Part shown: piece by piece, positions 18,177 to 64,000 of the stretch
How positions within the stretch are numbered: the stretch's first letter is position 1
Layout: each line of letters begins with the position of its first letter
NCBI RefSeq assembly: GCF_050920415.1
Contig: NZ_CP169309.1
Source of the DNA: Escherichia coli
GTDB taxonomy: Bacteria; Pseudomonadota; Gammaproteobacteria; Enterobacterales; Enterobacteriaceae
DNA: 64,000 nt
Direction: 5' to 3' (one strand)
Program-made: the position numbers and the translations under genes
Notes under the pieces: generated by a model
What the model was told of the DNA's origin: nothing
Seen by the model: only the letters and a program-made list of their open reading frames with translations
Databases searched by the model: none

Positions 18177-18185
18177 CATTTTATC

Positions 18186-18365
18186 TGATGCGACGCTGGC
18201 CTGATAAGACGCGGGCAGCGTCGCATCAGGCATCGTGTGCAAATGTCGGATGCGGCGGGAACGCCTTATCCGACCTGCAAGATCTTTTATATCAACGTGT
18301 TAAAAAATTGTAGGCCTGATAAGACGCGCCAGCGTCGCATCGGGCATCCAGTGTAAATGTTGGAT
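18186..18365. repeat. REP/BIME palindromic repeat cluster (yacG-mutT intergenic)
   Basis: Several copies of GCCTGATAAGACGCG..CGTCGCATCAGGC and GCCGGATGCGGCG-type palindromes. Confidence 0.85.
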
Positions 18366-18377
18366 GCCTTAACCGAT

Positions 18378-18767
18378 CTACAGACACTTAAGCTTCGCAA
18401 TTACCGGTTCATTGGCTGGCGGAAAATCATCGGCATTCAGACCAACCAGCGACATCCACTCACCGGGTTGCCCTTCTTTACCCCACGGCTCCCCTTCCCA
18501 GCTTTCGACCAGCCAGAACCACAGAGTTATATGCCTGTCCGGGAATTCATATTCCAGTTTTTCAAATAGCGAAAAATGTTGTGGGGTAATCCCGACTTCT
18601 TCCTGAAGTTCACGCACCACCGCCTGTTCCGGCGTTTCGCCCATTTCAATTTTACCGCCAGGAAACTCCAGTTTATTCGCCATGTGCGCATCTGCGGCGC
18701 GACGGGTTATAAAGATTTCATTGTTCTCGTTGCGAATAATACCTACCGCAATTTGCAGCTTTTTCAT
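18378..18767 (-). CDS. mutT: 8-oxo-dGTP diphosphatase (Nudix)
   Basis: 129 aa ORF; Nudix box GGKIEMGETPEQAVVRELQEEVGI. Confidence 0.96.
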   Translation of the reverse strand: MKKLQIAVGIIRNENNEIFITRRAADAHMANKLEFPGGKIEMGETPEQAVVRELQEEVGITPQHFSLFEKLEYEFPDRHITLWFWLVESWEGEPWGKEGQPGEWMSLVGLNADDFPPANEPVIAKLKCL

Positions 18768-56453: not shown

Positions 56454-57218
56454 CTAAACCCCAACCACTTTCCGCAAAATATCGATATATACCGGCATCA
56501 ACGGGTGGCGAATTAACACCACCAGCGCCACCACGCCGATGGCAGAAATCAACGGTGTCAACCACAACAAATGACCGCGCGACAAATAATGACTTAAACG
56601 ATCAGTTACCTTGCCGCTGCGCCATAACCGCCAACACAGCCAGCCGCCAACCCACAAAAACACCGCTGTTGCCAGCAGCAACCACTTAAATTCACCGCTC
56701 TGCATCCCGGCAGGAATATCGATCGCCGCACCCGCCAGAATCCCCGGCAGGAAGTAAAACGGAGGCCATAACAGGCAGCCGATAATATTTGGCGTAATAA
56801 ATTTCGCCACCGGGAGATCCAACATTCCCGCCACCATTGGCACCAGCGGACGCGTCGGGCCGACAAAACGACCGACCAGAATGGTAAACATGCTGTGTTG
56901 ATGCAACGCATGTTCAGTTTTATCGAGTAATGCTTTGTTCTTCTTCAGAAATGACCAGCGATGCAACGGCTTTTTAAAACGCCAGCCCAGCCAGAAGGAG
57001 ATCCAGTCGCCCAGCAGGCAACCGACGATCCCTGCCAGCCAGGCGTGCCAGAAACTTAACTCGCCGCTGCCAATCAGCGCCCCCAGTCCCGCCATTAGCA
57101 CCGTACCGGGTAAAATCAAACCGACCAGCGCCAGCGACTCCAGAAAGGCCACCAACACCACCGCCATCAATGAATACACGGTGGATTGGGTAATAAAGTG
57201 TTCCAGCAATGCTTGCAT
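56454..57218 (-). CDS. yabI: DedA-family inner membrane protein
   Basis: 254 aa polytopic ORF (MQALLEHFITQSTVYSLMAVVLVAFLESLALVGLILPG..). Confidence 0.93.
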   Translation of the reverse strand: MQALLEHFITQSTVYSLMAVVLVAFLESLALVGLILPGTVLMAGLGALIGSGELSFWHAWLAGIVGCLLGDWISFWLGWRFKKPLHRWSFLKKNKALLDKTEHALHQHSMFTILVGRFVGPTRPLVPMVAGMLDLPVAKFITPNIIGCLLWPPFYFLPGILAGAAIDIPAGMQSGEFKWLLLATAVFLWVGGWLCWRLWRSGKVTDRLSHYLSRGHLLWLTPLISAIGVVALVVLIRHPLMPVYIDILRKVVGV

Positions 57219-57303
57219 AATGTGCCTGTCAAATGGACGAAGCAGGGATTCTGCAAACCCTATGCTACTCCGTCAAGCCGTCAATCATCTGATTCGTTAC
57301 CAA

Positions 57304-58182
57304 TTATGACAACTTGACGGCTACATCATTCACTTTTTCTTCACAACCGGCACGGAACTCACTTGGGCTGGCCCCGGTGCATTTTTTAAATACCCGCGAG
57401 AAATAGAGTTGATCGTCAAAACCAACATTGCGACCGACGGTAGCGATAGGCATCCGGGTGGTGCTCAAAAGCAGCTTCGCCTGACTAATGCGTTGGTCCT
57501 CGCGCCAGCTTAAGACGCTAATTCCTAACTGCTGGCGGAACAGATGCGACAGACGCGACGGCGACAGGCAAACATGCTGTGCGACGCTGGCGATATCAAA
57601 ATTGCTGTCTGCCAGGTGATCGCTGATGTACTGACAAGCCTCGCGTACCCGATTATCCATCGGTGGATGGAGCGACTCGTTAATTGCTTCCATGCGCCGA
57701 AGTAACAATTGCTCAAGCAGATTTATCGCCAGCAGCTCCGAATAGCGCCCTTCCCCTTGCCCGGCGTTAATGATTTGCCCAAACAGGTCGCTGAAATGCG
57801 GCTGGTGCGCTTCATCCGGGCGAAAGAAACCGGTATTGGCAAATATCGACGGCCAGTTAAGCCATTCATGCCAGTAGGCGCGCGGACGAAAGTAAACCCA
57901 CTGGTGATACCATTCGCGAGCCTCCGGATGACGACCGTAGTGATGAATCTCTCCTGGCGGGAACAGCAAAATATCACCAGGGCGGCAGACAAATTCTCGT
58001 CCCTGATTTTTCACCACCCCCTGGCCGCGTATGGTGAGATTGAGAATATAACCCTTCATTCCCAGTGGTCGGTCGATAAAAAAATCGAGATATCCGTTGG
58101 CCTCAATCGGCGTTAAACCCGCCACCAGATGGGCGTTAAACGAGTATCCCGGCAGCAGGGGATCATTTTGCGCTTCAGCCAT
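57304..58182 (-). CDS. araC: Arabinose operon regulator AraC
   Basis: ORF 57304..58233; start taken at ATG 58182 ([41 protein letters not shown].., 292 aa). Confidence 0.96.
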
Positions 58183-60221
<2,039 letters not shown>

Positions 60222-60231
60222 GGACACGACA

Positions 60232-61734
60232 ATGACGATTTTTGATAATTATGAAGTGTGGTTTGTAATTGGCAGCCAGCATCTGTATGGCCCGGAAACC
60301 CTGCGTCAGGTCACCCAACATGCCGAGCACGTCGTTAATGCGCTGAATACGGAAGCGAAACTGCCCTGCAAACTGGTGCTGAAACCGCTGGGCACCACGC
60401 CGGATGAAATCACCGCTATTTGCCGCGACGCGAATTACGACGATCGTTGTGCAGGTCTGGTGGTATGGCTGCACACCTTCTCTCCAGCCAAAATGTGGAT
60501 TAACGGCCTGACCATGCTCAACAAACCGTTGCTGCAATTCCACACCCAGTTCAACGCGGCGCTGCCGTGGGATAGCATCGATATGGACTTTATGAACCTG
60601 AACCAGACTGCACATGGCGGTCGCGAGTTCGGCTTTATTGGCGCGCGTATGCGTCAGCAACATGCTGTCGTTACCGGTCACTGGCAGGATAAACAGGCAC
60701 ATGAGCGTATCGGCTCATGGATGCGTCAGGCGGTATCTAAACAGGATACCCGTCATCTGAAAGTCTGCCGTTTTGGCGATAACATGCGTGAAGTGGCGGT
60801 CACCGATGGCGATAAAGTTGCCGCACAGATCAAGTTCGGTTTCTCCGTCAATACCTGGGCGGTTGGCGATCTGGTGCAGGTAGTGAACTCTATCAGCGAT
60901 GGCGATGTTAACGCGCTGGTCGATGAGTACGAAAGCTGCTACACCATGACGCCTGCGACACAAATCCACGGCGAAAAACGACAGAACGTGCTGGAAGCGG
61001 CGCGTATTGAGCTGGGGATGAAGCGTTTCCTGGAACAAGGTGGCTTCCATGCGTTCACCACCACCTTTGAAGATTTGCACGGTCTGAAGCAGCTTCCAGG
61101 CCTGGCCGTGCAGCGTCTGATGCAGCAGGGCTACGGCTTTGCGGGCGAAGGCGACTGGAAAACTGCCGCCCTGCTTCGCATCATGAAGGTGATGTCAACC
61201 GGTCTGCAGGGCGGCACCTCTTTTATGGAGGACTATACCTACCACTTCGAGAAAGGTAATGACCTGGTGCTCGGCTCCCACATGCTGGAAGTCTGCCCGT
61301 CGATCGCCGCAGAAGAGAAACCGATCCTCGACGTTCAGCACCTCGGTATTGGTGGTAAAGACGACCCGGCCCGCCTAATCTTCAACACCCAAACCGGTCC
61401 GGCCATTGTCGCCAGCCTGATTGATCTCGGCGATCGTTACCGTCTGCTGGTTAACTGCATCGACACGGTGAAAACGCCGCACACCCTGCCGAAACTGCCG
61501 GTGGCGAATGCGCTGTGGAAAGCGCAGCCGGATCTACCAACCGCTTCCGAAGCGTGGATCCTTGCTGGTGGCGCGCACCACACCGTCTTCAGCCATGCGT
61601 TGAACCTCAACGATATGCGCCAGTTTGCCGAGATGCACGACATTGAAATCACGGTGATTGATAACGACACCCGCCTGCCAGCGTTTAAAGACGCGCTGCG
61701 CTGGAACGAAGTGTATTACGGATTTCGTCGCTAA
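60232..61734 (+). CDS. araA: L-arabinose isomerase
   Basis: 500 aa ORF ([39 protein letters not shown]..). Confidence 0.97.
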
Positions 61735-61737
61735 GTA

Positions 61738-61835
61738 GCTGCATCAGGTATGTAACGCCTGATGCGACGCTGACGCGTCTTATCAGGCCTACGCGCTGTG
61801 ATTTTGTAGGCCGGATAAGCAAAGCGCATCCGGCA
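61738..61835. repeat. REP palindromic repeats (araA-araD intergenic)
   Basis: GCATCAGGtatgtaACGCCTGATGCGACGCTGACGCGTCTTATCAGGCCTAC and GTAGGCCGGATAAGCAAAGCGCATCCGGCA units. Confidence 0.85.
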
Positions 61836-61848
61836 CGAAGGAGTCAAC

Positions 61849-62544
61849 ATGTTAGAAGATCTCAAACGTCAGGTTTTAGAAGCCAACCTGGCGCTGCCAA
61901 AACACAACCTGGTCACGCTGACCTGGGGCAACGTCAGCGCCGTTGATCGCGAGCGCGGCGTCCTGGTGATCAAACCTTCCGGCGTCGATTACAACGTTAT
62001 GACCGCTGACGATATGGTCGTGGTCAGCATCGAAACCGGTGAAGTGGTTGAAGGTACGAAAAAGCCCTCCTCCGACACGCCAACTCACCGGCTGCTCTAT
62101 CAGGCATTCCCGTCCATTGGCGGCATTGTGCATACGCACTCCCGCCACGCCACCATCTGGGCGCAGGCGGGCCAGTCAATTCCGGCAACCGGCACCACCC
62201 ACGCCGACTATTTCTACGGCACCATTCCCTGCACCCGCAAAATGACCGACGCAGAAATCAACGGCGAATATGAGTGGGAAACCGGTAACGTCATCGTTGA
62301 AACCTTCGAAAAACAGGGGATCGACGCAGCACAAATGCCCGGCGTTCTGGTCCATTCTCACGGCCCGTTTGCATGGGGCAAAAATGCCGAAGATGCGGTG
62401 CACAACGCCATCGTACTGGAAGAAGTCGCTTATATGGGGATTTTCTGCCGCCAGCTTGCTCCGCAGTTACCGGATATGCAGCAAACATTGCTGGATAAGC
62501 ACTATCTGCGTAAACATGGTGCGAAGGCATATTACGGGCAGTGA
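61849..62544 (+). CDS. araD: L-ribulose-5-phosphate 4-epimerase
   Basis: 231 aa class II aldolase-family ORF ([46 protein letters not shown]..). Confidence 0.97.
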
Positions 62545-62564
62545 TGACTGTATAAAACCACAGC
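62545..62564 (+). promoter_or_regulatory. LexA (SOS) box upstream of polB
   Basis: TGACTGTATAAAACCACAGC contains CTGT-N8-ACAG; begins immediately after the araD stop, 55 bp upstream of the polB GTG. Confidence 0.6.
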
Positions 62565-62573
62565 CAGTCAACC

Positions 62574-62604
62574 AAAACCAGGCTATACTCAAGCCTGGTT
62601 TTTT
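62574..62604 (+). terminator. Intrinsic terminator after araBAD
   Basis: aaaACCAGGCT-atactca-AGCCTGGT-tttttt, 30 bp downstream of the araD stop. Confidence 0.8.
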
Positions 62605-62618
62605 GATGGAATTTCAGC

Positions 62619-64000
62619 GTGGCGCAGGCAGGTTTTATCTTAACCCGACACTGGCGGGACACCCCGCAAGGGACAGAGGTCTCTTTCTGGTTAGCGACGG
62701 ACAACGGGCCGTTACAGGTTATGCTTGCACCGCAAGAGTCCGTGGCGTTTATTCCCGCCGATCAGGTTCCCCGCGCTCAGCATATTTTGCAGGGTGAACA
62801 AGGCTTTCGCTTGACGCCGCTGGCGTTAAAAGATTTTCACCGCCAGCCGGTGTATGGCCTTTACTGTCGCGCCCATCGCCAGTTAATGAATTACGAAAAG
62901 CGCCTGCGTGAAGGTGGCGTTACCGTCTACGAGGCCGATGTGCGCCCGCCAGAACGCTATCTGATGGAGCGGTTTATCACCTCTCCGGTGTGGGTCGAGG
63001 GTGATATGCGCAATGGCGCTATCGTTAATGCCCGTCTGAAACCGCATCCCGACTACCGCCCGCCGCTCAAGTGGGTTTCTATTGATATTGAAACCACCCG
63101 CCACGGTGAACTGTACTGCATCGGTCTGGAAGGCTGCGGGCAGCGCATCGTTTATATGCTGGGGCCGAAGAATGGCGATGCCTCCGCGCTTGATTTCGAA
63201 CTGGAGTACGTCGCCAGTCGTCCGCAGCTGCTGGAAAAACTCAACGCCTGGTTTGCTAACCACGATCCTGATGTGATCATCGGCTGGAACGTGGTGCAGT
63301 TCGATCTGCGAATGCTGCAAAAACATGCCGAGCGCTACCGTATTCCACTGCGTCTGGGGCGCGATAACAGTGAGCTGGAGTGGCGCGAGCATGGCTTTAA
63401 AAACGGTGTGTTTTTTGCCCAGGCTAAAGGTCGGCTAATTATCGACGGTATTGAGGCGCTGAAATCTGCATTCTGGAATTTCTCTTCATTCTCGCTGGAA
63501 ACCGTCGCTCAGGAGTTATTAGGCGAAGGAAAATCTATCGATAACCCGTGGGATCGGATGGACGAAATTGACCGCCGTTTCGCCGAAGATAAACCTGCGC
63601 TGGCGACTTATAACCTGAAAGATTGCGAGCTGGTGACGCAGATCTTCCACAAAACTGAAATCATGCCGTTTCTACTCGAACGGGCGACGGTGAACGGCCT
63701 CCCAGTAGATCGGCACGGGGGATCGGTGGCGGCGTTTGGTCATCTCTATTTTCCGCGAATGCATCGTGCTGGTTATGTCGCGCCTAATCTCGGCGAAGTG
63801 CCGCCGCACGCCAGCCCTGGCGGCTATGTGATGGATTCGCGGCCTGGTCTGTATGATTCGGTGCTGGTGCTGGACTATAAAAGCCTGTACCCGTCGATCA
63901 TCCGCACCTATCTGATTGATCCCGTCGGGCTGGTGGAAGGCATGGCGCAGCCTGATCCAGAGCACAGCACCGAAGGCTTTCTCGATGCCTGGTTCTCGCG
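62619..64000 (+). CDS. polB: DNA polymerase II (B family), 5' portion (3' end outside window)
   Basis: Frame open from GTG 62619 to the window end; translates [30 protein letters not shown].. with exonuclease motifs and the pol motif [10 protein letters not shown]; not in the ORF track because no stop lies in-window. Confidence 0.93.

Follow-up and report, generated by a model that had tools for sequence, protein, structure and literature searches.

The araA-araD intergenic region

The window, by which is meant the whole 64-kb stretch of Escherichia coli DNA analysed (contig NZ_CP169309.1), carries araB, araA and araD on one strand. The last two genes are separated by a spacer that holds a pair of inverted repetitive extragenic palindromes (REPs) and ends in the araD Shine-Dalgarno sequence (Table 1). 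A spacer of 114 bp had been proposed by a sequence-only reading, and the gene coordinates bear this length out. The Y-type REP forms an imperfect hairpin of 14 bp that is present in both the minimum free energy (MFE) and centroid folds. The hairpin of the opposed REP is also found in the fold, and the feet of the two REPs pair with each other (inverted repeat I1). This second REP is presumably of the Z2 type, an assumption made from its length of 30 nt and the Z2 consensus. Z1-type REPs elsewhere in the window (56350-56383 and 18245-18276) are 4–5 nt longer.

The left flank includes GCATCAGG (61741-61748), which the inverted-repeat finder reported as fully complementary to CCTGATGC (61758-61765; inverted repeat I6). 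Judged by its sequence, this flank looks like a vestigial REP tail followed by an inter-unit joint. Its homology to the K-12 junction GCATCCGGCATTCAAC is suggested by identity at 12 of 16 positions. A consensus scan of the araA-araD spacer found neither a promoter nor an intrinsic terminator. In an Rfam scan of 55000-64000, the REP-derived family naRNA4 matched 61737-61789 and the REPs of the thiQ-yabI spacer below threshold; the naRNA4 scores were 33–37 bits, where the gathering score is 59.5, and no RNA family was assigned in this interval.

Table 1. Genes and repeat features at the REP-bearing spacers, in window positions.
Feature	Position	Strand	Size	Basis or remark
araB	58521-60221	+		ORF list
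araA (L-arabinose isomerase) CDS	60232..61734	+		ORF list; annotated araA in CP169399 (100% identical)
araA stop codon TAA	61732-61734	+
araA-araD spacer	61735..61848		114 bp
Left flank GTAGCTGCATCAGGTATGTAAC	61735..61756	+	22 nt	Allele parsing
Y-type REP, ends in CTAC	61757..61792	+	36 nt	Inverted repeat I2, fold, similarity
S-type (short) linker GCGCTGTGATTTT between REP feet	61793..61805	+	13 nt	Sequence
Z2-type REP (presumed type), GTAG start, opposite orientation to Y REP	61806..61835	+	30 nt
Right flank CGAAGGAGTCAAC	61836..61848	+	13 nt	Sequence
araD Shine-Dalgarno AAGGAG	61838-61843	+		Sequence
araD (L-ribulose-5-phosphate 4-epimerase) CDS	61849..62544	+		ORF list; annotation of identical record
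yacG-mutT spacer	18177..18377		201 bp	K-12: 111434..111648, 215 bp
yacG-mutT Y fragment	18185-18198
yacG-mutT Y REP	18198-18232
yacG-mutT Z1 REP	18245-18276
IHF-consensus-like TATCAACGTGTTA in the long yacG-mutT linker	18290-18302
yacG-mutT Y REP	18310-18346
yacG-mutT Z1 REP	about 18360-18381			Damaged by 11-bp internal deletion
thiQ-yabI spacer	56342..56453		112 bp	K-12: 113 bp; 1-bp indel
thiQ-yabI Z1 REP	56350-56383
thiQ-yabI Y REP	56398-56435			Preceded by 14-nt linker

Repeat copy number relative to E. coli K-12

In E. coli K-12 MG1655 (NC_000913.3), araD lies at 65855-66550 and araA at 66835-68337, which leaves a spacer of 284 bp, close to the value of about 280 bp that the sequence-only reading had given. 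The two spacers differ by 170 bp, or 2 x 85 bp, which is exactly two tandem units. Each 85-bp unit in K-12 consists of a Y REP (36 nt), a linker (13 nt), an inverted Z2 REP (30 nt) and the joint TTCAAC (6 nt). Three such units stand in tandem in K-12 within the same flanks that enclose the single unit of the window. Tandem Repeats Finder reported a period of 85 bp, 3.1 copies and a 96% match for the K-12 spacer, and no tandem array for the araA-araD spacer of the window. The difference between the two spacers is one of REP-pair unit number, one versus three.

Classification of the element

REPs are imperfect palindromes of 20–40 nt whose foot is a conserved GTAG or CTAC. Both palindromes of the araA-araD spacer have this form: each is imperfect, the one at 61757-61792 ends in CTAC and the one at 61806-61835 starts with GTAG. 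They are also extragenic and repeated, and the window holds related copies in two further spacers. The Y REP matches that of the thiQ-yabI spacer (56398-56434) with 94.6% identity over 37 nt at an E value of about 1e-9, and a 714-bp query across the araA-araD spacer matched at a median of 8 places in each E. coli genome. With a degenerate REP pattern, 2 matches were obtained in the window against 0.00 expected in shuffled sequence; this and the E value put the REPs far beyond chance. This pattern had a fixed 5-nt loop and missed the Y REP of the ara spacer, which has a 4-nt loop; it was replaced by a blastn-short search with the REPs of the window. The REP-bearing regions of the 64-kb window are the araA-araD, yacG-mutT and thiQ-yabI spacers only. 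In the whole-window alignment to K-12, most of the intergenic indels fall in these three.

The araA-araD locus is a BIME-2, and the allele in the window is its single-unit form. Y and Z2 REPs are opposed, the latter presumed from the consensus and from its 30 nt, compared with the 32–34-nt matches to the Z1 REPs of the window. The linker is short, at 13 nt versus 32 nt for the Z1-Y linker of the yacG-mutT cluster. Multiple tandem copies, which are a feature of BIME-2, are absent from the window, where there is one unit; the locus has two or three units in other strains.

Ton-Hoang et al. (2012; PMC3333891) state that BIME-2 copy number varies between strains. That source also cites Espeli and Boccard (1997) for the binding and cleavage of BIME-2 by DNA gyrase. 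PMC1187871, citing Bachellier (1997; Genetics 145:551), describes BIME-2 loci as generally present and highly polymorphic in length. The ara locus resembles the BIME-2 polymorphism outlined in PMC3333891 in its alternating Y and Z2 REPs, its short linker, its strain-variable unit number and the likeness of units within the locus. It differs from BIME-2 arrays in that the window has one unit only, and hence no tandem array by itself.

The yacG-mutT and thiQ-yabI spacers

The sequence-only reading had held that REP clusters in the window are shorter than in K-12. Alignment showed that the lengths differ from K-12 in all three spacers, to unequal degrees: the ara spacer has two units fewer, the yacG-mutT spacer is 14 bp shorter (201 versus 215 bp, where about 14 bp had been estimated), and the thiQ-yabI spacer differs by 1 bp only. 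A difference in the number of REP units, which had been offered as the explanation, is correct for the ara spacer and incorrect for yacG-mutT, where loss of a REP unit was ruled out by alignment.

Two REP pairs around a long linker, which includes an IHF-consensus-like site, are present at yacG-mutT in both the window and K-12. The 14 bp are accounted for by an 11-bp deletion (K-12 GGCGAAAACGC) in the mutT-proximal Z1 REP and by three indels of 1–2 bp (+1, -2 and -2). With one stem arm and the loop deleted, the damaged Z1 REP can no longer form a hairpin. The CTAC foot of this REP overlaps the mutT stop codon (TAG, minus strand, 18378-18380), and the REP thus adjoins and partly supplies the end of the gene. 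The annotated length of mutT varies among other E. coli strains and is either 390 or 399 bp. The yacG-mutT region was matched at 99% or above in CP169399 only, and the next best genomes (94.5%) do not have the deletion. From these comparisons, the deletion looks private to the lineage of the window. One REP pair and a spacer near 99 bp, without the IHF-site linker and the second pair, are seen at yacG-mutT in about half of the E. coli genomes sampled. Unit number thus varies at yacG-mutT as well, but does not account for the difference between the window and K-12.

The yacG-mutT cluster may be related to BIME-1/RIP elements, in which a long linker with an IHF site separates one Y from one Z1 REP. 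Its Z1 and Y REPs enclose a long linker with TATCAACGTGTTA (18290-18302), a putative IHF site by comparison with the IHF consensus WATCAANNNNTTR. The order of Z1, linker and Y fits BIME-1/RIP, but two further REPs flank it. Unlike BIME-1/RIP, the cluster has two REP pairs and is hence composite or atypical, and in the window one of its Z1 REPs is short of 11 nt of the stem-loop.

Length alleles of the araA-araD spacer in E. coli

The length of the araA-araD spacer was read from the match span of a query made of the coding flanks alone. In the E. coli collection of 5,426 complete genomes, 5,398 matched this query, and 59 were taken at even steps down their ranking. Three units (284 bp) were found in 21 of the 59 genomes (about 36%), one unit with a BoxC-like palindrome (168 bp) in 18 (about 31%), two units (199 bp) in 13 (about 22%) and one unit alone (114 bp) in 7 (about 12%). 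An earlier sample had given 114-, 168- and 199-bp alleles in the ratio 5 : 12 : 7, with a further 15 matches split by BLAST owing to the repeats, and the tallies of the two samples are consistent. The araA-araD locus is a four-allele length polymorphism: three alleles differ in carrying one, two or three units, and the fourth adds a BoxC-like palindrome to a single unit. The statement that REP unit number commonly varies among strains is upheld by these frequencies, as it is for BIME-2 loci by PMC3333891 and PMC1187871.

In the 168-bp allele, a 57-nt BoxC-like palindrome (…CCCCTCGCCCCTTTGGGGAGAGGGCCGGGGTGAGGGG…) replaces 3 nt just 5' of the araD Shine-Dalgarno sequence, and thus sits between it and the Z2 REP. 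The 114-, 199- and 284-bp alleles share the right flank CGAAGGAGTCAAC unchanged; the 168-bp allele departs from it upstream of AGGAG. A search with the BoxC-like core pattern found no copy within the window; the insert exists only in the 168-bp allele of other strains.

Alleles were parsed in detail in 15 E. coli strains, including K-12, and the one-unit alleles among them occur on at least four sequence backgrounds. That of LF4-1 combines the left flank of K-12 with unit 1 of the K-12 array. CFE299, GmF052 and A36 share a three-unit allele, and the alleles of DETEC-P881 and AR_0104 differ from its unit 3 by a single substitution (AAATCGC for AAAGCGC). By sequence, these two backgrounds are most simply read as exact 170-bp contractions of three-unit alleles, and the locus thus repeatedly expands and contracts. 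The unit of 2013C-4282 matches that of the 168-bp allele of EC42405. The unit in the window, a mosaic of variants found in several alleles, has its nearest counterparts in PCN033 (168 bp) and in unit 1 of ETEC-2264. Among the 30 genomes with flanks nearest to those of the window (97.2–100% identical), the spacer is 114 bp in 23 and 168 bp in 7.

Direction of change

For the outgroups, a DNA pattern was run against a single genome of each species; it gave 49 loci, 42 of them with both araA and araD. A single inverted REP pair is present in Salmonella enterica subsp. arizonae (100 bp) and in several Citrobacter species (95–98 bp), including Citrobacter koseri. Within Escherichia, the spacer of the type strain of E. 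albertii is 114 bp long and holds one unit, and that of Escherichia sp. MOD1-EC7003 is 284 bp long and holds three. In addition, a 230-kb contig labelled Chryseobacterium sp. 18061 (CACSKA010000010.1) carries araA and araD of the enterobacterial type (84% and 92.5% amino-acid identity) that are separated by REPs, which suggests a mislabelled or contaminated assembly.

A spacer shorter than that of K-12 need not reflect loss, since E. albertii and almost all of the closest relatives of the window likewise have one unit. One unit could even be the ancestral, never-expanded state in the lineage of the window, with the three units of K-12 derived, a history to which the exact 114-bp spacer of the E. 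albertii type strain, the single REP pairs of S. arizonae and Citrobacter spp. and the prevalence of 114 bp among the nearest relatives by flanks all lend themselves. The three units of MOD1-EC7003 do not fit it, however, nor do the two other one-unit haplotypes that are clearly contractions of three-unit alleles. The flanks also speak against it: a mutated left flank (…GGTATGTAAC) is common to all E. coli alleles parsed, whereas the inter-unit joints of E. coli (…GGCATTCA[A/C/G]C) retain the form of the left flank in E. albertii and MOD1-EC7003. Because the flank is mutated and the joints are not, the multi-unit arrays of E. coli would descend from older arrays and would not have been rebuilt from the one-unit allele of E. 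coli. On balance, an ancestral, never-expanded single unit is possible but rather doubtful. It is far less credible, to the point of being hardly worth entertaining, that the 114-bp spacer is an artefact in which short-read assembly collapsed three units into one. Assembly can collapse tandem units of this kind (85 bp, 96% identity), but an array of about 255 bp fits within an ordinary paired-read span, and 114 bp occurs in about 12% of complete genomes, in several haplotypes, and in E. albertii. The complete genome CP169399 is, moreover, 100% identical to the window in 714 bp across this spacer, in secA and in the yacG-mutT spacer.

Mechanism of copy change and predicted RNA structure

Unit number at araA-araD changes in exact steps of 85 bp. 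The change would most likely have come about by unequal homologous recombination or replication slippage between near-identical tandem units, and TnpA(REP), the REP-associated transposase, may also contribute. Recombination and amplification of BIMEs are raised by Ton-Hoang et al. (2012; PMC3333891). As in the REPIN/RAYT system (Nunvar, 2010, PMC2817692; Bertels and Rainey, PMC3337134), an inverted REP doublet is the unit gained or lost. Unlike that system, no RAYT gene lies within the window, and the exact 85-bp steps are more simply explained by homologous recombination between tandem units.

In the polycistronic araBAD mRNA, the two REPs are predicted to fold into stable hairpins right after the araA stop codon. 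The RNA of the window allele folds into two hairpins at -48.9 kcal/mol (z = -2.5), and that of the K-12 allele at -139.3 kcal/mol (z = -5.6). One unit would retain the hairpin structure, and three units would give at most a quantitative strengthening. The predicted arrangement resembles the REP hairpins of malE-malF, which likewise lie between co-transcribed genes and immediately 3' of the upstream gene. The malE-malF REP was reportedly described as an intra-operon mRNA stabiliser by Newbury and colleagues in 1987, and work by Khemici and Carpousis in 2004 is said to have dealt with intra-operon REP stabilisers as well. Unlike at malE-malF, stabilisation at araBAD would be expected by analogy only. 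Judged by other intra-operon REPs, the hairpins would impede 3'-to-5' exonucleases and could also partly attenuate transcription or read-through into araD, so that araB-araA mRNA would be expected to outlast araD mRNA. Protection of upstream mRNA from 3'-exonucleolytic decay by REPs appears as a general statement in PMC9023263. Literature searches on REPs in araA-araD or in araBAD mRNA returned nothing relevant. As the consensus scan found no intrinsic terminator in the spacer, any role in termination would be Rho-dependent or absent.

Two other candidate effects were rejected. Pairing of the S linker with the araD Shine-Dalgarno sequence appeared in the MFE fold; it is weak and missing from most of the ensemble. 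Ribosome stalling at the araA stop codon by a REP needs the REP to lie within about 15 nt of that codon, and the first full REP begins 22 nt past it.

The araA-araD spacer very probably carries a minimal-copy element of the BIME-2 type within a recombination-driven allele series, with hairpins that would stabilise or attenuate araBAD mRNA. The sequences show the anatomy of the element, the allele series with its frequencies and recurrence, and its occurrence in outgroups; the recombination mechanism and any consequence for RNA or DNA topology are inferred.

Hairpin elements across the Enterobacteriaceae

A stable GC-rich hairpin element is present in the araA-araD spacer (47–284 bp) of all 42 Enterobacteriaceae species sampled. 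The elements come from families that are not related to one another: some are REPs, some are BoxC-like and some are hairpins with a T run. Their fold z-scores are mostly below -2. In Klebsiella, Kluyvera, Enterobacter and others, the spacer is occupied by related BoxC-like elements. In C. freundii, Atlantibacter, Silvania and Huaxiibacter, a T run after the hairpin makes the element look like an intrinsic terminator.

The presence of a hairpin element after araA in all 42 species may reflect selection, and may equally reflect mere tolerance of the spacer. Cells without AraD build up toxic L-ribulose-5-phosphate, and araD expression matters for this reason. Unit number and the BoxC variant might be regarded as selected alleles that tune the ratio of AraB and AraA to AraD and not as neutral markers. 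The recurrence of a hairpin element in every species sampled, despite the unrelated families, points in this direction, as does the position of the elements directly before the araD ribosome-binding site; differential expression by intra-operon BIMEs is reported in PMC9023263. Palindromic elements are, however, inherently structured and insert in any permissive spacer, so that structure alone is no proof of selection, and recurrent gain and loss together with the intermediate frequencies of the four alleles fit neutrality equally well. We regard such tuning in E. coli as unlikely. The wider proposal is improbable to the same degree, namely that selection in the Enterobacteriaceae keeps a hairpin 3' of araA while the element itself turns over, with the hairpin setting the AraA:AraD ratio as a stabiliser or attenuator and the E. 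coli alleles tuning expression.

Lineage of the window and other differences from K-12

The window allele is present, 100% identical, in the public complete genome CP169399. This record is of strain MFDS1022581, from animal-source food in South Korea, to which the window is 100% identical. The lineage is a rare one in E. coli: for four segments tested, only 1–14 of about 5,400 complete genomes matched at 99% or above. Identity to K-12 is 97.0% over 326-50952, and 95.7% and 95.0% across sgrR-thi-ara-polB.

The setA gene (K-12 77621-78799) is absent from the window, where leuD adjoins the 3' end of sgrS/sgrT and the junction lies between the leuD stop codon and the sgrS terminator (50959-50992). 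Of 5,399 E. coli genomes, 2,145 have the junction without setA as a contiguous stretch, O157:H7 among them, and the sgrS/sgrT segment of strains with setA is only about 87% identical. The absence of setA is an ordinary presence/absence polymorphism. In thiP (ORF 54064-55659), the window does not have 15 nt of K-12 (74474-74488, TGGTTAATTCCAGGT) at about 54096, an in-frame indel of 5 codons near the N-terminus.

Implications

The one-unit ara spacer is a real, ordinary and already known kind of strain-to-strain length variation. Nothing in this finding alters the current understanding of REP and BIME elements, and in that respect it matters little. With its four length alleles, the araA-araD spacer is a clean marker of potential use for typing strains. 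In addition, the natural series of alleles, with one, two or three BIME units or one unit plus BoxC, is convenient for testing the effect of intra-operon REPs on downstream expression.
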